From NCBI GenBank assembly GCA_963721685.1, contig CAVRJJ010000001.1:68555-132554 (forward strand): DNA of 64,000 nt, written 5' to 3'. Positions 2,750 through 58,083 of this stretch are shown here, piece after piece. The notes beneath the pieces are model-generated. The model did no database searches and was not told the origin of the DNA. It saw only the letters and a list, made by a program, of their open reading frames with translations. Origin of the DNA: an uncultured bacterium (GTDB lineage: Bacteria; Patescibacteriota; Saccharimonadia; UBA4664; SCTI01). Position 1 is the stretch's first letter. Every line of letters begins with the position of its first letter. The translations under genes and the position numbers were made by a program.

Positions 2750-4507
2750 ATGATCACCTATCTCCGTTTTCGTCTGCAACGCAACTTACGCCGGGTGCAG
2801 CGTAATGTGAGGCGCTTGTGGTATATGGGCAAGCGTTATATTAGGTTTGGGTTCTGGGGTAAATGGCGGCAGCTTACCATGATCCGACGGTTTGCCCTGG
2901 GTTGGTGGTTCGTAGTGATTGCCCTGGGCCTGGGGCTTGCACTGCAAACAAGCTCGATTCGCCAACGCGGGCTAGTAGCCCAGCCCCAAGCGGGCGGGAG
3001 CTATAGCGAGGCGGTGGTAGGCACAATTAAAAACTTGAATCCGGTGTTGCCTGAAGGCGGGGCCAGCGCCGATGCCAACCATCTTATTTTTAGCGGCCTA
3101 ACACGCACTACGGCCGAGGGAAAGCTGGAGCCTGATATTGCCGAAAGCTGGGACATTAGTCCGGACGGTAAGATCTATACTTTCCACTTGCGTAAGGACG
3201 TGCGTTTTCATGACGGTGTACCGGCAACCGCGCAAGATGTGGTTTTTACGCTTACGGCTATTCAAAACCCGGATACCCGCTCTGCCCTGGCTGCCAGCTG
3301 GCAGGGGGTGAAGGTTGCCGCCCCGGATGACCATACGGCTGTGTTTACCTTGCCAAAGGCTTATACCCCTTTTATTAACGCTACTACGGTGGGGCTTCTC
3401 CCGCGCCACCTTCTTGAAAACACCGAGCCAAAAAACTTAAGGGTGGTGGAGTTTAACCAAAAGCCGGTCGGTACCGGCCCCTACAAGCTATCGACCTTCG
3501 ATTCAACGTCCGGTGAAATTAACCTGACTGCAAACACCGCTTATTATCACGCGAAACCGCTGATCGCCAACATTACTCTTCGTCTTTATAGTGACTATGA
3601 CAAGGCCTTAGATGCCTATAAGCATCGTCAAGTGCTGGGCGTAGGGCGTTTGCAGCCGGATCAAATGAATGAGGCGGCCAAGTTGGGGACCTTATCGCTC
3701 TACCGGGCAAGCGTGCCTAACGCGGTAGGGGTATTTTTTAAGACAACTTCGCCGGTCCTTCAAGACAAGGCGGTGCGCCTAGGGCTCGCCCAGGCAACTG
3801 ATCGCGGGGCAATCGTAAAAAAGCAATTCCACAATGAGGCGTCACCATTGACCGGACCGCTTCTTAGTACCGGGTTAAATATGGCGGGAGCCGCCCACCA
3901 GCCGGCTTTCAACCTTAAGCAGGCGCAAACGACACTGGAGTCAGCTGGGTGGAAAGAGGGCCGGGGCGGCATCCGTGCCAAGAATGGTAAGTCGTTAAAA
4001 ATTAAGTTGGTTACCCAAGCAAACAGTCCTTATTCTCCTGTAGCCAAAGAGCTGGCCAAACAGTGGAAGCGCGTCGGGGCCGACCTCGACATAACTGAAG
4101 TCGGTCCGGATAAGTTACAGCAAAGCTATATTCGCCCGCGGAATTACGACGCGCTTTTGTACGGCATTAATTTAGGGGCAGACCCTGACGTTTACGCTTA
4201 CTGGAGCTCCTCGCAAATCAAGGATCCGGGACTTAATATCTCGGCTTACAGCTCGAAACAGGCAGACGCGGCGCTGGAAAGCGGGCGCATCTTGCGCGAC
4301 CCCGCCTTAAGGGCAGCAAAATACCGCAGTTTTATTCAAGCCTGGGTGAATGATACGCCGGCGGTCATGCTGTATACACCAAGTTATGAGTACGGGGTTG
4401 ATAGTTCGGTTTACGGCGTCTCTATCCGCAAGCTCATAAGCCCTTCCGACCGGTTTACCGGGATTGAGAAATGGTCGGTTAATGTGCGCGAAGTGCCTCG
4501 CCGCTAG
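2750..4507 (+). CDS. ABC transporter substrate-binding protein, family 5 (peptide/nickel type); the true start may be internal (about 2879)
   Basis: Signal-anchor helix, then the conserved ...IAESWDISPDGKIYTFHLRKDVRFHDG...TAQDVVFT... SBP_bac_5 pattern. The N-terminal 40 aa are Arg-rich and may not be translated. Confidence 0.7.
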   Translation: MITYLRFRLQRNLRRVQRNVRRLWYMGKRYIRFGFWGKWRQLTMIRRFALGWWFVVIALGLGLALQTSSIRQRGLVAQPQAGGSYSEAVVGTIKNLNPVLPEGGASADANHLIFSGLTRTTAEGKLEPDIAESWDISPDGKIYTFHLRKDVRFHDGVPATAQDVVFTLTAIQNPDTRSALAASWQGVKVAAPDDHTAVFTLPKAYTPFINATTVGLLPRHLLENTEPKNLRVVEFNQKPVGTGPYKLSTFDSTSGEINLTANTAYYHAKPLIANITLRLYSDYDKALDAYKHRQVLGVGRLQPDQMNEAAKLGTLSLYRASVPNAVGVFFKTTSPVLQDKAVRLGLAQATDRGAIVKKQFHNEASPLTGPLLSTGLNMAGAAHQPAFNLKQAQTTLESAGWKEGRGGIRAKNGKSLKIKLVTQANSPYSPVAKELAKQWKRVGADLDITEVGPDKLQQSYIRPRNYDALLYGINLGADPDVYAYWSSSQIKDPGLNISAYSSKQADAALESGRILRDPALRAAKYRSFIQAWVNDTPAVMLYTPSYEYGVDSSVYGVSIRKLISPSDRFTGIEKWSVNVREVPRR

Positions 4508-18183: not shown

Positions 18184-19974
18184 CTACTTCTTAGGGTCGT
18201 GGTAGCGGGTAATGTCGGCGTGATTGGTTGGGTTCGGTGCCGGGGAAGGGGGCGGTACCGAAGGATGCGCGGGTGTTGGAGGCATTATGTTATCCTCCGG
18301 TGATTCAACGTGGTTCAACCGGTCACGGGCACTTTGCAGGGGGTGTTCTTCCAGCGGGGCGGTTTCATAGTGCGGCGCAGGCGCGACCGTGGTGGTACCG
18401 GGTACCACTCCTGGTGTGGGTTTGGGAATGTAAGGGTTTCCGGCACTGGCGAGCGGGCCATTAGTATACATGGTTTCACTTTGCCGGCGGCGCATCATAA
18501 CGATGAATCCGCCCACGATGGCCGCTACTGCCGCGGCCAAAAGGATCCAAAGCCAGGCGCTGCCGCCACTTTTCACCGCTGCAAGGACCAAGGGCTTTTC
18601 AATTTCAAGGGTGCGGATATTTTGCTTTTCATCTACTGAAGAGTTCAGTAAGGAAGCCTTTTTACCGGTTACACTGACTATCTTCATTTTAGCGGCAGCT
18701 TGTTTGCCGGAGGCTTGGAAAACCACCCTGATTGGATTTTTATATTCAGTAATTTCATCGCCGGACTTATTTTTACAGGTGAGCGAGTTGGGTTTAATCA
18801 AACTGTTCTTGGGCGGAATAACGCTGCTTTCTGACACCGCGCAGGACAACTCTTCGCTAAATGTCCCGGCGCTAATCTCGTAGCACACGCTGTTATTGTC
18901 CGAGCATATAGTAGTAGCTTCCTCGGGAACAACATTGGCTTCAAAGTCGTTTGTTGCCAGTTCTGTAGTGGCGTATGGGCTGGCATTGCCGGCCGCATCG
19001 ATGGCCGCCACACGATAGTAGTATTTGGTGGCAAATTCAGTCGAGATGTCATCAAAATTAGCGGTTAAGCTTTCTTGAAGCACTACCCATTCGTCACCTC
19101 CAAGCGAGCGCTCAATTTTGTAGGTTGTCGCGTCACTAACCGTGTCCCAGGTAAGGGATACCACGCCGCTATCTTGGGTTGCTGCAAGGTTCTGTGGAGT
19201 TCCCGGCGGTGTTGTATCTGGTGCGGGCGCTGGTGTTGTTGGCTTAGTGCTGACAAACGGAATAGTGATCCCTCCCAGATTCGGTCTTGGCGTAGGACTA
19301 GGGGTTGGAGCGGGTGAAGGGCCGGGCTGAGGACTGGGGCTCGGGCCAGGAGGAGGCGGCGGCCCAGGTGGAGGAGGCGGCGGCCCAGGTGGAGGAGGCG
19401 GCGGCCCAGGTGGAGGAGGTGGAGGAGGTGGTGGTGGTGGTGGAGGTGGAGGAGGAGGAGGCGTCGGATCATCATACGTCATGTAATAGTAAAAAGGGCC
19501 GTTTGCGCCGCCATTGGTTAGTGTAAACGAATTGCTATTTACCTTATAAGGGGAGCCTGGGTGCTCATAATATCCGCCTTTAATCGCGTAGTAAATATAG
19601 TATTGCGCGGAGGAGCCGGGTGGGTTGGTCCCCGAAACCGGACACGTATAAAATACGGATGCCCCGTCACCATTGGTAATAGAATAGGCTCCATTACCGC
19701 TTGAAGATGACCGGCAATACCATGAAGCGTCTGGACTACCAAGCGAGGAACGTATTCTAATATCAACATTTGGAATTCCGCCACCGTGAACTGGGTCTAC
19801 AACATATAAAATCACATAATTGTTCCAGGCTGTAGGAGCGTTGTTGGCAAACGAATTGTAAACAACATATGTTCCCGTAACTGCCGATACTGCGGCAATA
19901 AGAAAAATCATCGCGGCATTCAAATGATGCAGCGACATGAGCTTGACTGACTTTTTGCTCCGCTTCATATGCAA
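18184..19974 (-). CDS. Type-I membrane cell-surface protein with a polyproline stalk and a fibronectin type III domain
   Basis: N-terminal signal/TM helix; a Tyr/Gly-rich N-terminal domain; a run of 17 Pro followed by GPPPPPP repeats and a PS/PT-rich linker; an FN3-like segment (LTWDTVSDATTYKIERS...YYYRVAAIDAAGNAS); a C-terminal TM (WLWILLAAAVAAIVGGFIVMM) followed by an RRR stop-transfer; a Pro-rich cytoplasmic tail. Confidence 0.7.
   Translation of the reverse strand: MHMKRSKKSVKLMSLHHLNAAMIFLIAAVSAVTGTYVVYNSFANNAPTAWNNYVILYVVDPVHGGGIPNVDIRIRSSLGSPDASWYCRSSSSGNGAYSITNGDGASVFYTCPVSGTNPPGSSAQYYIYYAIKGGYYEHPGSPYKVNSNSFTLTNGGANGPFYYYMTYDDPTPPPPPPPPPPPPPPPPPPGPPPPPPGPPPPPPGPPPPPGPSPSPQPGPSPAPTPSPTPRPNLGGITIPFVSTKPTTPAPAPDTTPPGTPQNLAATQDSGVVSLTWDTVSDATTYKIERSLGGDEWVVLQESLTANFDDISTEFATKYYYRVAAIDAAGNASPYATTELATNDFEANVVPEEATTICSDNNSVCYEISAGTFSEELSCAVSESSVIPPKNSLIKPNSLTCKNKSGDEITEYKNPIRVVFQASGKQAAAKMKIVSVTGKKASLLNSSVDEKQNIRTLEIEKPLVLAAVKSGGSAWLWILLAAAVAAIVGGFIVMMRRRQSETMYTNGPLASAGNPYIPKPTPGVVPGTTTVAPAPHYETAPLEEHPLQSARDRLNHVESPEDNIMPPTPAHPSVPPPSPAPNPTNHADITRYHDPKK
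19352..19418. repeat. 21-bp tandem repeat (about 3 copies of GGCGGCCCAGGTGGAGGAGGC) inside the polyproline coding region
   Basis: Direct reading of 19352-19418. On the minus strand it encodes (PPPPPGP)n. Confidence 0.8.
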
Positions 19975-30209: not shown

Positions 30210-30713
30210 ATGACGCACCACCACAAGAAGGATAAGAAAAAAGGTTTTGTAACCGGCGCATTAATTGGCACGGTTATTGGTGGTGTCGCGGCGCTGCTAT
30301 TTGCCCCTAAGAGCGGCAAAGAAACCCAGGCTGAGATCAAGCAAAAAGCTGGTGGAATAGTAAAGTCGGGAAATGCCAAGCTGACAGAGCTGGGAAGTGA
30401 ATTAGATGGCCGCATCGATAGCCTAAAAGTAGCGGCAAAGGAGCTTCACGGGGAAGCCCGCGAGGAAAGCCAGCGCCTCATAACACGCGCCGAAATCTTG
30501 CGTAATGACCTAGAGGCGGCGGTTGAGAGGTTGGCAAAAACTGGCCGGGATGCTAAAGAAGACGCGGCAATTGATGCCAAGCGCCTAGTTCAGGATGGTC
30601 AAGATGTTATCTCGGAGCTTGAGCGCACTACCAAAAAAATTATGGGATCATTTCGGTCTAAAGTAGGCAAAAAAGACAGCGAAGCCGACAAGCATGACGA
30701 AACCGAACGCTAA
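30210..30713 (+). CDS. YtxH-like (DUF948) membrane-anchored coiled-coil protein
   Basis: N-terminal GFVTGALIGTVIGGVAALLFAPKSGKETQ is the YtxH signature, followed by a coiled coil. Confidence 0.5.
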   Translation: MTHHHKKDKKKGFVTGALIGTVIGGVAALLFAPKSGKETQAEIKQKAGGIVKSGNAKLTELGSELDGRIDSLKVAAKELHGEAREESQRLITRAEILRNDLEAAVERLAKTGRDAKEDAAIDAKRLVQDGQDVISELERTTKKIMGSFRSKVGKKDSEADKHDETER

Positions 30714-30981
30714 GCCTACTAAAGAAGAATACGAAAAGCTTGGAAAGGCGGTCGAAGGGGCGCTAATAAATGATTATATTAACTGGCTGGGTAATACCCG
30801 CCGGCAGGCAATCTCATCTTTTATCCGCGGTATCTTTATGGGCCTTGGCACAGCTATCGGCGCGACACTAGTGGTTGCTCTACTGGTTTGGATCCTGTAC
30901 ATACTTGGCGATATCCCAGGAATTGGAGAATATTTTAAAGGTGCCGGCGACCAAATTGAGAATAAAGTTCCCGGGCAATAA
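30694..30981 (+). CDS. Small membrane protein (DUF5665-like)
   Basis: 95 aa with one TM helix; overlaps the upstream gene. Confidence 0.35.
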   Translation: MTKPNAKPTKEEYEKLGKAVEGALINDYINWLGNTRRQAISSFIRGIFMGLGTAIGATLVVALLVWILYILGDIPGIGEYFKGAGDQIENKVPGQ

Positions 30982-31006
30982 ATAATTTTTAGATGATAGC
31001 GGTCGC

Positions 31007-31030
31007 GCAGCCCGCCAGATGGCGGGCTGC
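31007..31030 (+). terminator. Perfect 10-bp hairpin GCAGCCCGCC-AGAT-GGCGGGCTGC at the 3' end of the upstream operon and the edge of GC-rich islet A
   Basis: Read directly. Only a weak T tract follows (TAGGTTTC), so it is a possible bidirectional terminator. Confidence 0.4.
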
Positions 31031-31287
31031 TAGGTTTCACGGACTATGTCACTCTCCCAAGCCCACACCGGCCATGCCGTGTTAATGTAGGGGTGAGGTG
31101 GCGGGTTGAGCGGCAGTAGCTTGTACCGCCACTCCAGGCGCTGATCGCCGTGCTCGTCGAGGGGACGCTTTTGTTCGCGCCGTTCAACAACAACACAGGT
31201 GAGTACAAGCTTCGGATCGGCGGGCGACCGAAAGGTCACTCGCGTGGTGCCGTCGGCGCTGTATATCGGTGGCGGGCGGCTGCCCAT
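31030..31287 (-). CDS. Hypothetical protein (85 aa) in GC-rich islet A, second gene of a minus-strand pair
   Basis: Strong SD AAGGAG 4 nt before the ATG (minus strand, 31287), 26 nt downstream of the previous stop. MGSRPPPIYSADGTTRVTFRSPADPKLVLTCVVVERREQ... The longer 173-aa ORF (to 31551) is the same frame but overlaps the other gene, so the SD-supported start is preferred. Confidence 0.45.
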   Translation of the reverse strand: MGSRPPPIYSADGTTRVTFRSPADPKLVLTCVVVERREQKRPLDEHGDQRLEWRYKLLPLNPPPHPYINTAWPVWAWESDIVRET

Positions 31288-31313
31288 AATGCTCCTTGTC
31301 TTGGAGGTGAATG

Positions 31314-31685
31314 CTACGAGATCATCACGGGCGATTCGCCTCGCTTGTGGTTGATTGCGTCGCGAATGGCTTCGAGTTCCTCGTGGTCGAGAACCGCGAA
31401 CGAAGCCCAACTGTCGGCTCCGACCTCGCGTCCGTTGATCAGGTAGCTCTGTCGACGAATCGGCATGCCCTGGTCGTCGTAGTCGACGGTTTCGATCCTC
31501 ACCGCGAACGTGGTCCGAGTACCGTTGGGACGGCGGTAAGGGACGCTGCACGAGTCAATTGCTGGCTTTGCAGCAGCGACGAGCCTCGTGATCAGATCCT
31601 TGGCCTCCACCATAGCGATGAGAGCTCGTGCTCGTCTGGAGGTTCTCCACTTCGATGCTGGCCTTTCTATGGTATTGCCCATCAT
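31314..31685 (-). CDS. Hypothetical protein (124 aa) encoded in GC-rich islet A
   Basis: Minus-strand ATGATG at 31685/31682 preceded by GAAAGTAGGACC (SD-like). The sequence MMGNTIERPASKWRTSRRARALIAMVEAKDL...LDHEELEAIRDAINHKRG matches no family I recognise. GC content is about 60% or more. Confidence 0.45.
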   Translation of the reverse strand: MMGNTIERPASKWRTSRRARALIAMVEAKDLITRLVAAAKPAIDSCSVPYRRPNGTRTTFAVRIETVDYDDQGMPIRRQSYLINGREVGADSWASFAVLDHEELEAIRDAINHKRGESPVMIS

Positions 31686-31822
31686 TGGTGGTCCTACTTT
31701 CGGGTTGTGTGTTAAGAAACCGTTGCTTATATATACCACAAATTGCTTAAAGTTTCAAGTGTTTCCATAATTACGCTAACGCTTGGGCGTGGTATACTAA
31801 GTGAATCGAAAAGGGGGCCTGT

Positions 31823-35404: not shown

Positions 35405-35482
35405 TTTCCCGTTAATGGGAATGTAATTATTACAAATCATGGTATAGTATCTTTGCTTCAGCAAACCGACCGAAGGACAACC

Positions 35483-35743
35483 ATGGAAGACCCTTACCAG
35501 GTTCTAGGTGTTCCTGCATCGGCAAGCGAGGAGGACATCAAAAGAGCGTACCGTGTACTCGCGCGGCTGCATCACCCGGACCAAAATCCAGGGAGGGGTG
35601 ACACCGACTTTAAGGCGGCTACCGCGGCCTATGAAGAGCTGAGCGATCCCGAAAAGCGACGCCAGTATGACGCAAAACAAAATCGTCCTGATTTCGCGGA
35701 GATGGTTGGCCGTTATTTCGACGCCTTTTTCTCCGCGAGGTAA
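35483..35743 (+). CDS. Stand-alone J-domain (DnaJ-like) protein
   Basis: DPYQVLGV...EEDIKRAYRVLARLHHPDQN...AYEELSD: J-domain with HPD tripeptide. SD GAAGGA 6 nt upstream of the ATG at 35483. Confidence 0.7.
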   Translation: MEDPYQVLGVPASASEEDIKRAYRVLARLHHPDQNPGRGDTDFKAATAAYEELSDPEKRRQYDAKQNRPDFAEMVGRYFDAFFSAR

Positions 35744-35791: not shown

Positions 35792-35932
35792 GTGCGATGC
35801 AAGTTCCGGTTCTGGCTGCAGGAAGAGCGCGGAGATGCTGGCACGGTGATGATGGTCGTGCTGTTTCTGGTGATCCTGGCGCTGGTGGTCCTCGGGTTCC
35901 TCTTCCTCCCACCCCTGCCTCATGCGGGTTGA
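35792..35932 (+). CDS. Small hydrophobic peptide (46 aa from GTG; 27 aa if ATG at 35849) in GC-rich islet B
   Basis: SD AGGTGG 4 nt before the GTG. Encodes ...MMVVLFLVILALVVLGFLFLPPLPHAG, a single TM helix. The stop TGA is 1 nt before the next ATG. Confidence 0.4.
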   Translation: MRCKFRFWLQEERGDAGTVMMVVLFLVILALVVLGFLFLPPLPHAG

Positions 35933-35933
35933 C

Positions 35934-36062
35934 ATGTCGAGGTTCAGGCGCGGGAAGGTACGCAGTCTCATCTTCGACGTAGTCGTTGCGCTGTTGTTGC
36001 TCGCAGGGCTCATCGCCTTCTGCGTGGCGATGGCGTACTTCGACCGCAACCCGATATGGTGA
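35934..36062 (+). CDS. Small membrane peptide (42 aa) translationally coupled to the previous peptide
   Basis: MSRFRRGKVRSLIFDVVVALLLLAGLIAFCVAMAYFDRNPIW: basic N-terminus plus one TM helix. GC-rich codons (CTG/GCG/CGC). Confidence 0.4.
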   Translation: MSRFRRGKVRSLIFDVVVALLLLAGLIAFCVAMAYFDRNPIW

Positions 36063-36187
36063 AGCCGAAGCTGGCTCACCAGTGCCTTCTCCGGGCGCTA
36101 CTCTGTCAATCGACCGAGAGCGCTTTGGAGGGGGCGTTCTTAGTTATTATTGATCTGCCCATCAGATTATGCTACATTACTTGGGTT

Positions 36188-36820
36188 ATGCATCCAGCAA
36201 TCACCCAGCTTGAATCTACCCATCGCAAAACCGCTGTCGCCAAAGTCCAGTCCGGCGATACCGTGCGTGTGCACCAGCGCATTCGTGAGGGCGCCAAACA
36301 GCGGATCCAGATTTTTGAAGGCGTGGTGATCCGTACCCATCGGCTGGATAGCCTTTCCGCTACCGTTACTGTGCGCCGGATTGCCAGCGGTGTCGGCGTT
36401 GAAAAAACCTATTTATTGCACTCCCCTAATATCGATAAGGTTGAAATTTTGCGCCGTGCCAAAGTGCGCCGCAACTTTCTAAGTTATCTGCGCGGCCGGC
36501 GCGGCAAATCTGCCCGGCTCCAAGAGATGGGCTTTGATAAAGCGGCCGCTAACGCTTCCGATAACAGTCTCTTGGTCCCAGGAGATGATGCCCCCGGTAC
36601 CGCCGCCGCCGCCGCGGTAACAGAAATTGAAGCTGATGAAAACCAGGATGAGCTAAACCAGACTGACGTTTCGTTGGATGAGGTAATCAAGGAAGAGAAC
36701 AAAGCAGCCGGGGCTGATGATGCCAGCCCGAGTGATGGCGGCACCGACGCCGGAGACGAATCGGAAATGGAGCGCGAGGAAGCCGAGCAAAAGATTGATA
36801 AACCCGGCAAAGACAGCTAA
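36188..36820 (+). CDS. rplS: 50S ribosomal protein L19 with an acidic C-terminal extension of about 95 aa
   Basis: MHPAITQLESTHRK...VQSGDTVRVH...QIFEGVVIRT...RRIASGVGVEKTYLLHSPNI...RRAKVRRNFLSYLRGRRGKSARLQE aligns with L19. The tail ...DENQDELNQTD...DESEMEREEAEQ is extra. The upstream ATG at 36056 is unlikely to be the start. Confidence 0.85.
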   Translation: MHPAITQLESTHRKTAVAKVQSGDTVRVHQRIREGAKQRIQIFEGVVIRTHRLDSLSATVTVRRIASGVGVEKTYLLHSPNIDKVEILRRAKVRRNFLSYLRGRRGKSARLQEMGFDKAAANASDNSLLVPGDDAPGTAAAAAVTEIEADENQDELNQTDVSLDEVIKEENKAAGADDASPSDGGTDAGDESEMEREEAEQKIDKPGKDS

Positions 36821-37868: not shown

Positions 37869-39674
37869 ATGCAACCAATCAACACCTCCAAAACCACCTG
37901 GGACCTCTCGTCATTACTGGCTGAAGACAATGACCCCAAAATTATCGAATACCGTAAAGGGCTTAGCGCCGCTACCTCGGCTTTTGCCAACAAATGGCGT
38001 GAACGAACCGATTATCTCAAACAACCACCAGTACTGCTTAAAGCGCTCAACGAGTTCAATGAGCTGGAAAGCCTTAGGGCTAATGGCCGGGAGTACTATT
38101 ACTTTGGTTTGCGTTCCAGTGTGGATGCTATCGACCCGAATTTAAAGGCTAGGGAAAACCAGGCTATTGAGTTCTTGCAGGATATTTCCAACCAGCTGCA
38201 GTTCTTTTGGTTAAAGGTGGGTAATATTGATGAAAAGCTGCAGCCGGCTTTTTTGGATGATAAGGGTCTTTTGCCCTACCGCCACTGGATGGAGCAACAG
38301 TTTCGCTCGGCCAAGCACCGTTTAAGTGAAGCCGAAGAAAAAATTATGATGCTTAAATCCACCCCCGCCCATTCATTATGGGTGCAAATGACAAGCGATA
38401 TGTTGGCAAAGGATGAGCGGGAGGTGCTAACCGAAGACGGCAAAATCAAAAAGGCCACTGAAGAGGAGGTGCTTTCACTGTTAACCAGTAAGCAAAAACC
38501 GGTGCGCGACAAGGCCGCTAAAGCCATGAATGAAATGTTAGACGACCACGCCGACGTGGCCGTTACAGAACTTAATGCCATACTAAGCAATAAAAAAATT
38601 GACGACTCTCTGCGCGGATATGAACGTGCCGACAGTGCGCGCCACCATGCCGACGACATTGACAGTGAAGTGGTTGACGCGCTCATTGCCGCCGTATCAG
38701 ACCGCTACGACATTGCCCACCGTTACTATCAGTTGCGCGCTAAGCTAGTTGGCTTACCGAAGCTTGCCTACCACGAAAAAACCATTGAGTTTGGATCGGA
38801 CGATGTTGAGTATAAATACCCCAAAGCATCTCAGCTAGTTCATGACGTATTCACAAACCTTGATCCTGAGTTCGCCAATATCTACGCCTCATTTATGGAA
38901 AATGGCCAGATTGACGCCTTCCCCCGCAAAGGTAAACGCGGTGGGGCTTTTTGCGCTCATCACGGCATAACCCATCCTACTTATGTAATGCTGAACCATA
39001 CCGATAAACTACGGGACGTAATGACGATTGCCCATGAGATGGGTCACGCAATTAACAACGAACTGATCCGCAAAACCCAAAACGCCTTGAACTTTGGCAC
39101 GCCCATGGCCACGGCGGAAGTGGCCAGCACGTTTATGGAAGACTTTGTGGTGGAACGGCTCTTAAAGGAGGCGGATGATGAAACTGAGCTGTCACTTCGA
39201 ATTCGCCAACTCGATGACACTATTGCTACCATTTTCCGTCAAATCGCGTTTTACCGTTTCGAGCAAGAGCTGCACGCAGCGTTCCGTAAACAAGGCTACT
39301 TATCGCAAGACGAAATTGGAACCATCTTTGTAACGCATATTGACGCGTATTTGGGTCCGGTTTTCAACGGATCCACGGATGCGGCCAATTGGTGGATGTA
39401 TGTACCGCACTTTCGGTCATTCTTTTATGTCTATTCGTATGCCAGCGGATTACTGATTTCCAAAGCCATGCAGGCAAAGGTGCGTTCGGATAAAAGCTTT
39501 ATGGCTGAAGTTAAAACATTTCTGTCAGCCGGTTTGTCTAAGTCGCCCCAAGACATTTTTGCTGCCATGAAGATTGATATTACGGATAAGGGTTTTTGGA
39601 AAAACGGGTTAGAGGAAATAGACCGGCTATTGGCTGATACTGAAAAGCTGGCAAAGAAACTTGGTAAGGTTTAA
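37869..39674 (+). CDS. pepF: Oligoendopeptidase F (M3B family)
   Basis: HEMGHAI (HExxH) zinc motif with a downstream E. About 600 aa and the M3 architecture. Confidence 0.85.
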   Translation: MQPINTSKTTWDLSSLLAEDNDPKIIEYRKGLSAATSAFANKWRERTDYLKQPPVLLKALNEFNELESLRANGREYYYFGLRSSVDAIDPNLKARENQAIEFLQDISNQLQFFWLKVGNIDEKLQPAFLDDKGLLPYRHWMEQQFRSAKHRLSEAEEKIMMLKSTPAHSLWVQMTSDMLAKDEREVLTEDGKIKKATEEEVLSLLTSKQKPVRDKAAKAMNEMLDDHADVAVTELNAILSNKKIDDSLRGYERADSARHHADDIDSEVVDALIAAVSDRYDIAHRYYQLRAKLVGLPKLAYHEKTIEFGSDDVEYKYPKASQLVHDVFTNLDPEFANIYASFMENGQIDAFPRKGKRGGAFCAHHGITHPTYVMLNHTDKLRDVMTIAHEMGHAINNELIRKTQNALNFGTPMATAEVASTFMEDFVVERLLKEADDETELSLRIRQLDDTIATIFRQIAFYRFEQELHAAFRKQGYLSQDEIGTIFVTHIDAYLGPVFNGSTDAANWWMYVPHFRSFFYVYSYASGLLISKAMQAKVRSDKSFMAEVKTFLSAGLSKSPQDIFAAMKIDITDKGFWKNGLEEIDRLLADTEKLAKKLGKV

Positions 39675-39792
39675 ATAATTGCAGGCGGGTCCGCCACCAC
39701 CCCGAGGGGCGGCGGCGGGAGGCCGTTCATACACGCATTACTGCCCGGACAGGCAATTACGGTCGCTCGGAAGCGGCATTAATTGCGTCCTT

Positions 39793-40095
39793 TTAACGCT
39801 GTTTGATGGGGACCACGGTGCCGGGCGGGCGCCGATCCCGCTCGTCTTCGAGGGTCGAGAACACCTTGGCCAAGGCCAGGAAGTTCCGTCCCTTTTTTGT
39901 GAGCGAAAGGACCAGCACGGAGGCGATGAGGATCATCAGCGTACCGAGGATCCAGACCGCTCCACTTGAGCTGCCTAGAAGAGCGACCCCCAGGACCGCC
40001 ATTGCCGCGCTCGCGACGGTGATGAGACGACGGCGTCGACGGCTTCTGGCACTCTGGATACGGCGCTGATGCAGTTCTGTGGCTGTAAGGGGCAT
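39793..40095 (-). CDS. Hypothetical small membrane protein (100 aa, Arg-rich N-terminus plus two TM helices) in GC-rich islet C
   Basis: The minus-strand ATG at 40095 is preceded by AAGGGA. MPLTATELHQRRIQSARSRRRRRLITVASAAMAVLGVALLG...ILGTLMILIASVLVLSL... About 65% GC. Confidence 0.45.
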   Translation of the reverse strand: MPLTATELHQRRIQSARSRRRRRLITVASAAMAVLGVALLGSSSGAVWILGTLMILIASVLVLSLTKKGRNFLALAKVFSTLEDERDRRPPGTVVPIKQR

Positions 40096-40357
40096 GTGTT
40101 CCCTTTGTTCGATGGACGCAGTGTGTGAATGGCGCGACTTGATGCAGCAAACTCAGAAACTGGGTAAACCTACTTCAAAGTCAGAAAGAACAATAGCATA
40201 AAACTTCATAAAAGTCAATAGATTGGCACTAGCGCTATTTACGGCAACGAAGAGTTGCAAATTCGCGGTTCATTTGCAATAATGCCTCCATAACGTCGGC
40301 CTGCTGGTCGACTTTTTTTGAACTACAACTTAATAACAACAGAATAGGAAAGATCAT

Positions 40358-41581
40358 ATGAATACCCAGTTTTTAGCCGCCATTAACCAGATTGCCGATG
40401 AAAAAGGCTTACCGCGTGAAATAATTGTCGAAGCCGTAGAATCGGCACTGGCCGCTGCTTACAAAAAGGATTATGGCGACAAAGACCAGGAAGCTCGCGT
40501 TAAGCTTAATGACGATACCGGCGCGATCCAGGTTTTTATTAGTAAGGAAGTGGTTGGAGATGACGCGCCCGAAGAGGATTTTAACGAACACCTCCACATT
40601 CACTTAAAAGACGCCAAAAAAATTAAAAAAGACATAAAACTTGGCACCGACGACGAGCCAGCCACAATCGAGATTGAAGTCGATCCCGGCGAAGGCTTCG
40701 GGCGGGTCGCCGCGCAAACCGCAAAACAAGTAATCATCCAGCGCTTGCGCGAAGCTGAACGCGAGATTATTTATAACGAGTACCAGGATAAGGAGGGTAC
40801 GATGCTAAACGGTACCGTCCAGCGGGTGGATGGGAATTTAACCTATGTAGATATTGGCCGCACCAACGGTGTATTGTTTGCTTCGGAACAAATTCCTGGC
40901 GAGCATTACTACCCCGGACAGCGGGTAAAAGTTTATTTAGTGCGGGTTGAGCAGACCGCTCGCGGGCCGCAGATTGTAATAAGCCGGGCACACCCGGAAA
41001 TGGTGCGCCGCTTATTCGAGCTGGAAGTACCGGAAATAGAAACCGGAACGGTCGAAATTAAGAATGTGGCCCGTGAAGCCGGAACCCGTAGTAAAGTCGC
41101 GGTCCAGTCAAACTCGGATAGCGTTGACCCGGTTGGTACCTTTGTTGGCGGCCGTGGTGCCCGGGTACAGGCCGTAATGGGCGAGCTCGGCGAGGAAAAG
41201 ATCGATATCATTCTTTATAGTGACAACCCGGAGACCTACATCATTAATGCCTTGTCACCAACCAAGGTTGTTGGTGTTGAGCTGGATGAGACTGAGCATA
41301 AGGCAAAGGTAAGAGTGCCCGAAGACCAGCTCAGCCTGGCAATTGGCAAGCAAGGCCAAAATGTGCGCTTAGCGGCCAAGTTAACCGGCTGGAACATTGA
41401 TATTTTAAGCGCTGATGAGTCGCGGGTTGAAGCCGCCGCCGATGCCGCCACCAATGATGAACCAACACCACCCCGAAAGAAGCAAGACCTGGAAAGCTCG
41501 TTAATTGACGCTGTTAACCAACAGTCGCAATCCGCTTCCGTTGACGGTTCCGAGCCCGCCGAAGCTGAAAAAACGGACTAA
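40358..41581 (+). CDS. nusA: Transcription termination/antitermination factor NusA
   Basis: N-terminal domain, S1 (GTVQRVDGNLTYVDIG) and two KH domains (VSRAHPEMVRRLFELEVPEI..., LAIGKQGQNVRLAAKLTGWNIDI), plus an acidic tail. Confidence 0.9.
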   Translation: MNTQFLAAINQIADEKGLPREIIVEAVESALAAAYKKDYGDKDQEARVKLNDDTGAIQVFISKEVVGDDAPEEDFNEHLHIHLKDAKKIKKDIKLGTDDEPATIEIEVDPGEGFGRVAAQTAKQVIIQRLREAEREIIYNEYQDKEGTMLNGTVQRVDGNLTYVDIGRTNGVLFASEQIPGEHYYPGQRVKVYLVRVEQTARGPQIVISRAHPEMVRRLFELEVPEIETGTVEIKNVAREAGTRSKVAVQSNSDSVDPVGTFVGGRGARVQAVMGELGEEKIDIILYSDNPETYIINALSPTKVVGVELDETEHKAKVRVPEDQLSLAIGKQGQNVRLAAKLTGWNIDILSADESRVEAAADAATNDEPTPPRKKQDLESSLIDAVNQQSQSASVDGSEPAEAEKTD

Positions 41582-44384: not shown

Positions 44385-45410
44385 ATGCAGCTTTTTCGCC
44401 GACTTACCAAGCAATATCCATCATTTCGAATATACGGGCTAACAATACTGGTTAGTCTGATTGCCTGTTTTGCGGTTGGATTTAAGCTGGGCCTGGCGGC
44501 TTTTATTACGACGGTTATACTGGCCGTTTTGGAAATAAGCCTGAGTTTTGATAATGCCGTAGTAAACGCCAAAGTACTTAAAACGATGTCACCGTTTTGG
44601 CGTAAAATCTTTCTGACGGTAGGAATATTGATAGCGGTGGTTGGGGTACGGTTGTTACTTCCGGTTTTGCTCGTCGTGATTTTTGCCCACACCGGTTTCA
44701 GTCAAGTTGTCCACTTGGCGCTTTATGATCCTGAAAAGTATGGAGAAATGCTTCACCACATTCATCCGGAGATTGCCGGCTTCGGCGGCATTTTCCTCCT
44801 CTTGTTGTTCCTTGATTACATCCTAGGCGAACGTAAAATTTTATGGCTTCGCCATCTTGAACTTCCGCTCATCAAGCTGGGCCGGTTTAAGCGGCTCGAT
44901 GTAGTGGTCGCCCTGCTGGCACTGTTAGGTGCGGTGAGCTTTGTAGGTGAGGAGCATAAAACCAGTATGCTCGTCTCAGGCATTGTGGGCGCGGTTATAT
45001 ATATTGTCATCAAGTCGGTTAGCGACTTTTTTGAAAATAGCAGTTCTATGCAAAATGTTGCGAAGTCGGGGTTGATCGGGTTTATATACCTGGAAGTGCT
45101 AGACGCCAGTTTCAGTCTTGACGGGGTACTGGGGGCTTTTGCGATTACCAGCAGTATTGTGGTAATTATGGTTGGTTTAGGGATTGGCGCACTATGGGTA
45201 CGGAGCATGACCATACATTTGGTTGAAACCGATACATTGGCACGATTCCGCTACTTAGAGCATGGTGCCCATTACGCGATCGGGGTACTGGCAGTGCTTT
45301 TACTCGTCAGTGCCAGCCAGGAAATATCCGAACTGATTACAGGCTTATTAGGGTTTGGTATTATTATCGCTGCTTTGACCGACTCAATCCGGTTTAACCG
45401 ACAGTCTTAG
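44385..45410 (+). CDS. TerC-family integral membrane protein
   Basis: EISLSFDNAVVNA motif (the TerC 'LSxDNxxV' pattern) and about 8 TM helices. Confidence 0.65.
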   Translation: MQLFRRLTKQYPSFRIYGLTILVSLIACFAVGFKLGLAAFITTVILAVLEISLSFDNAVVNAKVLKTMSPFWRKIFLTVGILIAVVGVRLLLPVLLVVIFAHTGFSQVVHLALYDPEKYGEMLHHIHPEIAGFGGIFLLLLFLDYILGERKILWLRHLELPLIKLGRFKRLDVVVALLALLGAVSFVGEEHKTSMLVSGIVGAVIYIVIKSVSDFFENSSSMQNVAKSGLIGFIYLEVLDASFSLDGVLGAFAITSSIVVIMVGLGIGALWVRSMTIHLVETDTLARFRYLEHGAHYAIGVLAVLLLVSASQEISELITGLLGFGIIIAALTDSIRFNRQS

Positions 45411-57651: not shown

Positions 57652-58083
57652 ATGGGAAAAGCATCGGCTCTTGACCAACGCGGATCCAACTGGGAGATCA
57701 CGAACGGAGGCCTCACGCTGGTCCTCAACGACTGCTTCGTGTTCACACGTAGCCCACGCCTTCGTGGGGTAGGCAACACCAAGGGCTCAGTTCTGAGCAG
57801 GCTCAACGCCCAGCTGCACGCGCTCATCGCGCGCGGCATGTGGGGGCAGGTTGACTTCATGCTCGGATCAAGCCAGCTGGTAGCCCAGTTGTGGATGCGC
57901 TGGGACCTCCAGTCGCGCCATCTGCAGGTAAGTGAAACCGTCCGTCTTCCGGGCCACCCGGTTCCGCTTGTCTGCGTGCGTTTCGAGCAGTTGGCCGAAC
58001 CGGGCTGTTTGCTCCTCGCTCCGGGAGTCGGGCAAGGTGATGAGCTCGCGTTCATCAACTCCCTGGGCTACCGCATCAGCTGA
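57652..58083 (+). CDS. Hypothetical protein (143 aa) in GC-rich islet D
   Basis: MGKASALDQRGSNWEITNGGLTLVLNDCFVF...AQLWMRWDLQSRHLQ...GDELAFINSLGYRIS. About 60% or more GC with CTG/GGC/CGC-biased codons. No family recognised. Confidence 0.45.
   Translation: MGKASALDQRGSNWEITNGGLTLVLNDCFVFTRSPRLRGVGNTKGSVLSRLNAQLHALIARGMWGQVDFMLGSSQLVAQLWMRWDLQSRHLQVSETVRLPGHPVPLVCVRFEQLAEPGCLLLAPGVGQGDELAFINSLGYRIS

Follow-up and report, generated by a model that had tools for sequence, protein, structure and literature searches.

How does a bacterium with a reduced genome come to carry, between two core genes, a GC-rich (guanine plus cytosine) patch coding for a membrane protein without recognizable relatives? 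The spacer between pepF and nusA in a 64,000-nt stretch of DNA from an uncultured bacterium (called the window below) raises this question. Comparison of NusA, PepF, and ClpC places the organism in Candidatus Saccharimonadia / Saccharibacteria. The genomes of Saccharibacteria and other Patescibacteria are tiny, and the cells live attached to bacterial hosts; most of the genes restricted to their lineages encode small membrane proteins of unexplained origin and function. An earlier note on the window took the patch for an inserted islet; our results point to the body of a resident minus-strand transcription unit. On balance, we favor a reading in which a conserved shell of expression signals surrounds coding cargo that is turned over by replacement or by very fast divergence, and in which the product is an accessory protein of the envelope. 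We use slot for the pepF–nusA spacer, cargo for its small open reading frames (ORFs), and minus unit or plus unit for the predicted transcription units on the two strands.

A membrane-protein gene very probably present after pepF

The pepF stop codon occupies 39672–39674 and the nusA ATG lies at 40358, leaving a spacer of 683 bp. Windows of 200 bp within 39700–40099 contained 62–62.5% GC compared with 43–46% on either side, and the GC-rich segment that follows pepF (Table 1) ranked in the top 0.5% of 486-bp windows (mean 49.7%, standard deviation 4.6%). The right part of the spacer, ~40160–40357, is AT-rich (about 40–43% GC), and the whole 64-kb window has 49.7% GC. The earlier note had described an insert of about 65% GC, with G/C palindromes directly after the pepF stop and, on the minus strand, an ORF of 100 amino acids (aa) with the Shine–Dalgarno sequence AAGGGA, an Arg-rich N-terminus, and two transmembrane (TM) helices. 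The compositional anomaly held at lower values (60.7% GC overall, 62.5% at the peak), the palindromes were present as described, and the ORF, here ORF100, was found at 39793–40095 with eight Arg in residues 11–23 and two hydrophobic peaks.

GC content at codon positions 1/2/3 of ORF100 was 0.64/0.50/0.71. The third-position value (GC3) of 0.713 compares with 0.517 ± 0.057 (maximum 0.617) in 51 long window genes, a deviation of +3.4 standard deviations, and was not attained by any of 5000 pieces of 101 codons drawn in frame from those genes; the codon-usage likelihood of ORF100 lay below that of 99.8% of 101-codon gene pieces. The windowed GC and codon check proposed in the earlier note thus placed ORF100 outside all 51 genes in both GC3 and codon usage. 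ORF length alone was uninformative, because four overlapping ORFs of 88–123 aa lie within the segment and 89% of random islets (first-order Markov copies) contain a frame of 90 aa or more without a stop. By contrast, a frame of at least 90 aa with two TM-like segments appeared in just 0.15% of first-order Markov copies of the islet (p about 0.0015). Judged by these features, ORF100 is very probably a real gene for a two-TM membrane protein, and its translation is likely.

The two hydrophobic 19-residue peaks of ORF100 (Kyte–Doolittle 2.1 and 2.6) are separated by the loop SSSGA, 4–5 residues that are all uncharged, and are followed by a partly helical C-terminal tail of 35 residues with nine Lys/Arg and four Asp/Glu. 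A single-sequence AlphaFold (AF2) model had a mean predicted local distance difference test score (pLDDT) of 64.5 and placed helices at residues 5–38, 45–65, and 69–88. Under the established positive-inside rule, the Arg-rich N-terminus of 23 residues, uncharged loop, and charged tail indicate that the product is probably an N-in/C-in two-helix hairpin in the inner membrane. From this architecture we infer, weakly, a lineage-specific accessory envelope protein that would act through membrane insertion and have no catalytic activity; a product of this type would be expected to vary with how individual strains interact with phage, host, or competitors. The N-terminal region also resembles a twin-arginine translocation (Tat) motif (SRRRRRL, an 18-residue h-region, SGA), and PF10399 scored 16.3 bits against a cut-off of 24. 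Tat-type cleavage, which would leave a mature protein beginning at a TM helix, is unlikely.

Predicted signals of a minus-strand unit

The GC-rich patch would form the body of a minus-strand transcription unit that is small but complete and consists, in order, of a promoter, a leader of ~90 nt, a Shine–Dalgarno sequence, the 100-codon ORF, and a 12-bp GC hairpin. RNA synthesis would run leftwards from about 40183 and end at the hairpin beside the pepF stop. The predicted promoter stands back-to-back with the nusA promoter and is separated from the Shine–Dalgarno sequence by a leader of approximately 90 nt; no plus-strand promoter-like site within ORF100 was reported by the scan. Minus-unit ORFs of two relatives, L170 and L167 (see below), have AAGGAG as the equivalent Shine–Dalgarno sequence. 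The palindromes GGCGGGTCCGCC (39686–39697) and CCCCGAGGGG (39703–39712) proved to be parts of one hairpin with a 12-bp stem, whose A/U-rich tail overlaps the pepF stop codon. This hairpin folded with –33 kcal/mol (z = –3.6) on the minus strand and with –27 kcal/mol (z = –1.35) on the plus strand, a difference attributable to G·U pairs. Stability on the minus strand only suggests that the structure is selected on the strand of ORF100.

Table 1. Coordinates of the pepF–nusA slot and its flanks in the window
Feature	Position	Strand	Description
pepF, M3 oligoendopeptidase F	37869–39674	+	conserved left flank; PF08439 and PF01432 in relatives
Direct repeat, left copy	39655–39667	+	AGAAACTTGGTAA; last pepF codons; 13 nt, imperfect
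GC-rich segment	39675–40160		60.7% GC; read as transcribed body of the minus unit
Terminator hairpin, predicted	39684–39724	–	core 12-bp stem 39691–39718, loop CUCG
ORF100	39793–40095	–	100-aa orphan membrane protein; ATG 40093–40095, TAA 39793–39795
TM helix 2	39901–39960	–	VWILGTLMILIASVLVLSL; codons 46–65; hydropathy; AF2 helix 45–65
TM helix 1	39973–40026	–	LITVASAAMAVLGVALLG; codons 24–41; hydropathy; AF2 helix 5–38, low confidence
Polybasic tract	40027–40065	–	RRIQSARSRRRRR; codons 11–23, eight Arg; predicted cytoplasmic N-terminus
Shine–Dalgarno-like sequence	40100–40105	–	AAGGGA, 4 nt upstream of the ORF100 ATG
Direct repeat, right copy	40155–40167	+	AGAAACTGGGTAA; at GC-rich to AT-rich transition
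Sigma-70-type promoter, predicted	40190–40218	–	TTGACT, 17 nt, TATTGT, TG extension
nusA promoter and leader	40255–40357	+	hairpin 40295–40312 and T7; conserved right flank, outside variable body

A shared expression frame in relatives

Close relatives were taken from a protein index; scans of GTDB and JGI gave distant ones only, and in a NusA scan of metagenome contigs no relative exceeded 53% identity. The slot was readable in nine of the relatives in Table 2, namely all except L161. Gene order is rplS-rnhB-yraN-pepF-spacer-nusA-clpC in all close relatives, with radA or TerC following. Spacers measured 695–1317 bp in each of the nine readable relatives and contained one to three small ORFs without a Pfam match; these ORFs have 56–67% GC, occur on either strand, and nearly all encode 1–4 TM segments, often together with a basic tail. 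No empty slot was found among readable relatives with at least 78% NusA identity. The slot was empty only in the distant outgroup L001 (NusA 67%, the best of the GTDB and JGI scans), where synteny is unchanged and the spacer, at 172 bp, contains no ORF.

Table 2. Relatives compared with the window (NusA and PepF identities are to the window unless stated)
Genome	Relationship	Minus-strand promoter	Cargo GC3	Core GC3
Window		TTGACT-TTTATGAAGTTTTATGC-TATTGT	0.71	0.54
L170	NusA 92%, PepF 85%	TTGACT-TTTATAGCTTTTATGC-TATTAT	0.73 and 0.95	0.51
L161	NusA 93%; Logan contig ends 92 nt before nusA
L162	NusA within 78–82%		0.73–0.81	0.53
L164	NusA within 78–82%		0.80	0.51
L165	NusA within 78–82%		0.67	0.66
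L166	NusA within 78–82%
L167	NusA within 78–82%	TTGACT-TTGCATAACTTTTATGC-TAATAT	0.73–0.75	0.67
L168	NusA within 78–82%		0.59	0.44
L169	NusA within 78–82%		0.58	0.67
L178	close to L168 (NusA 96.8% between P0028 and P0029)

These observations bear directly on the idea of an insert acquired by a formerly plain spacer, which they do not support: nine relatives (NusA 78–92%) carry comparable ORFs at the same position. The earlier note had suggested a comparison of pepF–nusA synteny and had named, as an outcome that would count against acquisition, the same gene with equal GC in relatives. What we found was a gene of the same kind, at the same position and with similar GC, with no detectable sequence similarity, so half of that outcome was realized.

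The signals around the cargo are shared where the cargo is not. The window and L170 have 73–77% DNA identity across pepF and across nusA–clpC in blastn, the alignment ending at the pepF stop (39674) and restarting at 40292, 66 nt upstream of the nusA ATG. By eye, homology restarts earlier, at about 40190, where the minus-strand promoter lies. An element TTGACT...TTTTATGCTAWT is common to the window, L170, and L167, a similar element occurs in L162 and L178, and the shared promoter pattern is TTGACT-N16/17-TAWTRT. At the opposite end of the unit, the tail AAATWATTGC follows the hairpin in the window, L167, L162, and L170 and overlaps the pepF stop in the first three; L170 has an analogous 17-bp hairpin, which is likewise stronger on the minus strand. 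Leader length (about 75–95 nt) and the Shine–Dalgarno sequence are conserved around unrelated minus-strand ORFs. Because promoter and tail are homologous in L170, L167, and L162, the minus unit would predate this genome and appears to be a resident feature of the pepF–nusA spacer in this Saccharimonadia clade.

L162, L164, L165, L166, L169, and L170, and apparently also L168 and L178, have a plus unit. Its consensus promoter, TTGACA...TAYAAT, stands immediately after pepF, and a GC hairpin precedes the nusA promoter. The window carries the minus unit only. The ancestor of the clade probably had both units.

Two further features were observed next to pepF and nusA. In L162, L164, L165, and L166, the near-consensus promoter TTGACA-17-TAYAAT just after the pepF stop leads into a conserved element, CTTATG(T/C)C, which opens a mini-ORF of 2–10 codons ahead of the main small-membrane-protein ORF and might represent a leader peptide or else a leaderless start. 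The nusA leader contains a promoter-like TTGCAA-17-AATAAT and then a 7-bp GC hairpin with a T7 run (40295–40319), ~40 nt before the ATG. This hairpin and T-run are kept in 10 of 10 relatives, including the distant L001. All seven pairs are maintained, through U-A/U-G and G-C/G-U exchanges together with one compensatory change, and the folding z is –3.4. The structure looks like an attenuator, possibly for autoregulation by NusA.

Cargo without detectable similarity

Cargo proteins showed no similarity to one another in all-against-all blastp. A block-shuffle test that preserves local composition gave z values of at most 3 across 55 cargo pairs, tblastn of cargo against 1.59 Mb of fetched loci found nothing, and no conservation of body DNA was seen among the relatives: cargo bodies were unrelated in every genome about 7% or more apart in NusA. 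Architecture did recur in part, in that the plus-unit cargo proteins of L162, L165, L166, and L169 all have two TM helices and a basic tail. L170 cargo includes a 153-aa protein with three to four hydrophobic segments (three by automated count) and a GC3 of 0.95.

L168 and L178 allow a comparison at short distance. Their 1-TM plus-strand ORFs are 28% identical, with conserved N- and C-termini, at 96.8% NusA identity. Their minus cargo is 87.6% identical in DNA compared with 78–80% for the flanks, and 21 of 23 aa are conserved. In seven samples of one species (not that of the window) with identical NusA, the spacer was 99.8–100% identical, so turnover must be slow; the same invariance rules out ongoing hypermutation or phase variation. 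We also rejected a clean insertion or deletion between L168 and L178, as the 100 bp of L178 that had appeared AT-rich consist of N and mark a scaffold gap.

That gap (GCA_964423965.1, L178 3080–3179) lies directly after the pepF stop, inside the GC-rich minus cargo. At L168 2905–3237, the gene caller reported a 110-aa acidic plus-strand ORF that is probably not real; a 3-TM frame lies on the other strand (about 2947–3220), and its N-terminus is kept in L178 (21/23 aa). Some plus units code for small Cys-rich, zinc-ribbon-like proteins in place of TM proteins: a 69-aa CxxC...C..H protein at L168 ~3587–3796 (= L177 71–280) and L178 3627–3836, conserved from L168/L177 to L178, and a 74-aa CxxC...CxxC protein at L170 2939–3163.

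Searches for families and homologs

ORF100 and ten cargo proteins of relatives were compared with Pfam, NCBIfam, PHROGs, and PADLOC, and three other reading frames of the islet with Pfam only. No match of ORF100 or the cargo proteins exceeded a threshold in these four collections. Sub-threshold matches driven by TM composition were obtained to MFS_1, YwiC, DUF6232, DUF3040, Rv2743c, SecE, and SLATT_1, and the sole PHROG match of ORF100 was to a family of unknown function (E = 0.005). Identity of ORF100 as SecE was rejected, its score being 18 bits against cut-offs of 134–150 for the equivalog hidden Markov models. A word-index search of 5.8 billion 90% clusters found no homolog of ORF100 beyond itself, and a full HMMER scan of 1.84 billion representatives returned itself and one spurious repetitive protein (P0004). 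Searches of the segment as DNA and protein in plasmids, phages, and IMG/VR gave only chance matches of 26–47 nt or nothing, tblastn gave no match in 50,697 phage records, and Rfam gave none at gathering scores or at E ≤1. No donor of the segment was found in plasmids, phages, viral contigs, or the 1.84 billion proteins. Of 13 cargo proteins looked up, 12 were present in a collection of 15 billion proteins, all as singletons at 90% clustering. In the literature we found no account of the pepF–nusA locus or of GC-rich mini-islets in Saccharibacteria.

Other GC-rich patches in the window

Ten patches in the window reach at least 60% GC over 300 bp; six lie inside ordinary long genes, and four, the pepF–nusA segment among them, lie between core genes. 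The proposal in the earlier note of recurrent small membrane-protein islets stood for at least one further patch, 35792–36062, and failed for two others, since its patch D has a non-TM ORF and its patch A no clear frame.

The patch at 35792–36062 (59% GC), between a J-domain ORF (35453–35743) and an rplS-like gene (36056–36820), contains on the plus strand two tandem, slightly overlapping 46-aa single-TM ORFs (35792–35932 and 35922–36062) with strong codon periodicity (GC2 0.35/0.39, GC3 0.78/0.85); by these predicted features it is the same kind of object as the pepF–nusA islet. A 143-aa plus-strand ORF at 57652–58083 (GC3 0.75, 59–64% GC), between ordinary genes and with no TM segment or Pfam match, is by composition a foreign orphan and by prediction a non-membrane protein. 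Between dnaE and a 95-aa two-TM gene lies the region 30990–31815, which has 57% GC with a peak of 63%; several overlapping ORFs of 98–173 aa occur there on the two strands, and neither a clear coding frame nor a TM segment is evident. A predicted 596-aa surface protein is encoded at 18184–19974 on the minus strand, with an N-terminal TM or signal segment, a C-terminal TM helix, and a long poly-Pro tract (PPPPPPPPPPPPPPPPPPGPPPPPPG...) that accounts for a GC peak and strong GC skew at 19081–19620.

Origin of the cargo

Replacement of cargo is our leading, though tentative, account of its origin, and we favor it over divergence in place. DNA taken up from GC-richer donors would recombine through the conserved shell and flanks. 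Consistent with this route, cargo GC3 (0.58–0.95) does not follow the GC3 of the genome that carries it (0.44–0.67), gene number, TM number, and strand vary between lineages, and the minus cargo of L168 and L178 is more alike than the flanks. Amino-acid composition and mutational equilibrium fail to explain the high GC, because the window's native TM genes are not rich in GC (GC3 0.45 at 30694–30981; GC3 0.50 at 44385–45410, which is syntenic with an L170 gene matching TerC) and nearby intergenic DNA has ~40% GC. GC-rich Saccharimonadales, such as L001 with a core GC3 of 0.82–0.86, are possible donors. In a survey of 125 Patescibacteria genomes, most detected transfers were within Patescibacteria, with competence as a likely route (PMC12455944).

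Several points weigh against this account or against the wider reading. ORF100 has no known donor or homolog, and for the uniform singleton status of the 12 cargo proteins found, fast divergence in place or an origin de novo is no worse a fit than transfer. That a slot gene can diverge fast in place is shown by the 1-TM ORFs of L168 and L178, the common two-TM, basic-tail architecture in L162, L165, L166, and L169 is as in diverged orthologs, and the near-identity of the slot across seven samples of one species means slow turnover. As to the unit itself, its promoter and terminator were predicted from consensus or folding energy, and no canonical U-run directly follows the stem of the hairpin. 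The AF2 model of the product is of low confidence, and the function was drawn from architecture alone.

The most serious rival is hyper-divergence in place, which we regard as possible but doubtful: an ancestral small membrane-protein gene would have resided in the slot since the origin of the clade, with no horizontal transfer, under the sole constraint of hydrophobicity and basic flanks, and would have lost recognizable similarity beyond about 95% NusA identity. Conservation of promoter, terminator tail, leader length, and Shine–Dalgarno sequence around unrelated ORFs is what such a history predicts, as are the conserved termini of the rapidly diverging L168/L178 1-TM ORFs, the uniform topology of the plus-unit proteins (two TM helices and a basic tail), and the fact that every cargo is an orphan or singleton and none recurs. 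Synonymous sites of the flanks are moreover near saturation (nusA DNA of L165 and L166 is 84% identical at about 97% aa identity), and weakly constrained DNA would therefore be unalignable. Set against this, cargo GC3 does not track genome GC3, although drift would be expected towards the ~40% GC of intergenic DNA; L170 and the window, at 92% NusA identity, have cargo of different length, topology, and composition; and L168 and L178 agree well in their minus cargo (21/23 aa, 87.6% DNA), so slot genes are not uniformly fast.

The remaining alternatives are all much weaker than cargo replacement or divergence in place. A single horizontal insertion into a plain spacer, with the high-GC DNA coming from a foreign source such as an actinobacterial host, would account for the sharp compositional boundaries, for the 172-bp spacer of L001, for the imperfect 13-nt direct repeat on both sides of the segment, and for weak sub-threshold matches to DUF3040, Rv2743c, and DUF6232, which we take to be mainly actinobacterial families and which fit a high-GC-like amino-acid composition. 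It is nevertheless very unlikely and is largely refuted by the synteny, since every readable relative of at least 78% NusA identity already has an occupied slot and since promoter and terminator tail are homologous in L170, L167, and L162. Moreover, no integrase or transposase was found near the segment and no recombinase Pfam family in any relative's locus, no tRNA lies at its border (the nearest in the window are at 20.1 kb and 56.2 kb), no second copy exists in the window or among 179 fetched loci, and searches of plasmids, phages, viral contigs, and 1.84 billion proteins turned up nothing similar. The repeat copies are exactly 500 nt apart, and a match of at least 12/13 arose in 0.1–0.4% of boundary-zone shuffles, in a post hoc test; the right copy falls inside the conserved shell, and with no counterpart in relatives the repeat was rejected as a recurrent att site. 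It may be a microhomology junction from illegitimate recombination, or chance. Slightly less probable again is a non-coding GC-rich element (a structured RNA, bidirectional terminator, or insulator) containing ORF100 by accident. Four overlapping ORFs, the abundance of long frames in random islets (89%), the lack of an ORF100 homolog, and the strong hairpin at the pepF end would all suit such an element, but a two-TM frame is rare by chance (0.15%), nearly every relative's cargo codes for TM helices, codon periodicity is evident with GC3 up to 0.95 in L170, and a Shine–Dalgarno sequence stands at the right distance before ORF100; in addition, Rfam gave no match even at E ≤1 and the body DNA is not conserved among relatives as a functional RNA would require. 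Least credible of all is an assembly or binning artifact in which a high-GC contaminant was joined into a Saccharibacteria contig. Assemblies of relatives do break or gap in the slot (the end of L161, the 100-N gap of L178), but an independent Logan contig (run ERR12037361) has an identical ORF100 and both junctions at identical neighbor spacings (262 and 118 nt), which excludes a chimera, and nine other assemblies from different projects have the same architecture.

Implications

If cargo turnover within a conserved frame is correct, the pepF–nusA slot is a compact example of turnover among small membrane genes that lie between a conserved promoter and terminator, and its two universally conserved flanking genes make it easy to recover from metagenomes. 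Were the pattern general, it would offer a route to study how reduced genomes renew their surface repertoire, would test exchange among Patescibacteria of differing GC against de novo birth, and would show where reporter or test genes could be placed in genetically tractable relatives. If the gene is merely an orphan, ORF100 is an ordinary hypothetical protein. A bolder version, in which the slot is a dedicated expression shell on both strands where unrelated GC-rich mini membrane genes are continually swapped or born with no integrase, seems unlikely to us; if true, it would make the slot a cassette or proto-gene nursery that supplies ultra-small epibionts with lineage-specific envelope proteins, and the same process might act at other spots between core genes, such as 35792–36062.

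Relation to known systems

The predicted ORF100 hairpin, N-in/C-in with a charged C-tail, resembles SLATT effectors and class II holins in architecture only. SLATT_1 (NF033634) scores ORF100 at 17.6 bits against a cut-off of 41, and DUF4231 (PF14015), which we take to be SLATT-related, gives E = 0.37. Unlike SLATT and holin genes, ORF100 has no partner gene for nucleotide signaling, endolysin, or phage functions nearby, and unlike holins and defense systems it matches no PHROG holin or PADLOC model. A pore-forming or lysis role of either kind is an architectural possibility. A type I toxin (less than ~60 aa, single TM, antisense RNA) was rejected, as ORF100 has 100 aa and two TM helices.

Orphan membrane proteins are common in Patescibacteria genomes; taxonomically restricted small membrane proteins in CPR (candidate phyla radiation)/Patescibacteria were reportedly described by Meheust et al. 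in 2019, and de novo TM proto-genes are said to be the subject of Vakirlis et al. in 2020. Slot ORFs are like both in being short, TM-rich, and without homologs, and in being under a lineage-specific constraint that would be biophysical rather than one of sequence. They differ from TM proto-genes, with their reported T-rich origin, and from the usual AT-rich orphans in being GC-rich, with GC3 up to 0.95, and in sitting within a conserved expression shell. Integron cassettes, with their resident Pc promoter, offer another parallel: a promoter of the slot would drive small, mostly orphan ORFs, often for membrane or secreted products, that differ from genome to genome. However, no IntI integrase occurs in the slot neighborhood of any locus, and no attC-type sites were recognized (no attC model was applied), the terminator hairpin being the sole strong inverted repeat. 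Slot cargo, unlike integron cassettes, also brings its own leader and Shine–Dalgarno sequence, ends in a hairpin terminator, and forms units on either strand.

The flexible genomic island, a general concept reportedly from the work of the Rodriguez-Valera group, would be the closest counterpart in its replacement type. Such replacement-type or "metagenomic" islands have been described, for example, in Salinibacter ruber (PMC2800850). Like these islands, the slot has a fixed position between conserved core genes, with content that is unrelated among relatives while the flanks are conserved, products that belong to the cell envelope, and no need for a local integrase; its composition deviates as expected of genomic islands (60.7% versus 49.7% GC), and the same locus, conserved flanks, and non-homologous content that characterize replacement islands are all found in it. 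The scale is different, as the slot measures 0.5–1.3 kb with one to three mini-genes and islands span 10–100 kb. Islands are usually AT-rich or neutral, whereas slot cargo is GC-rich; the slot's promoter and terminator, unlike those of islands, belong to the conserved frame; and classical replacement islands vary between strains, whereas the slot was invariant in seven samples of one species. Compared with flexible islands, then, the slot as read here is peculiar in being miniature and GC-rich, in lacking mobility genes, and in having a conserved frame of predicted expression signals.

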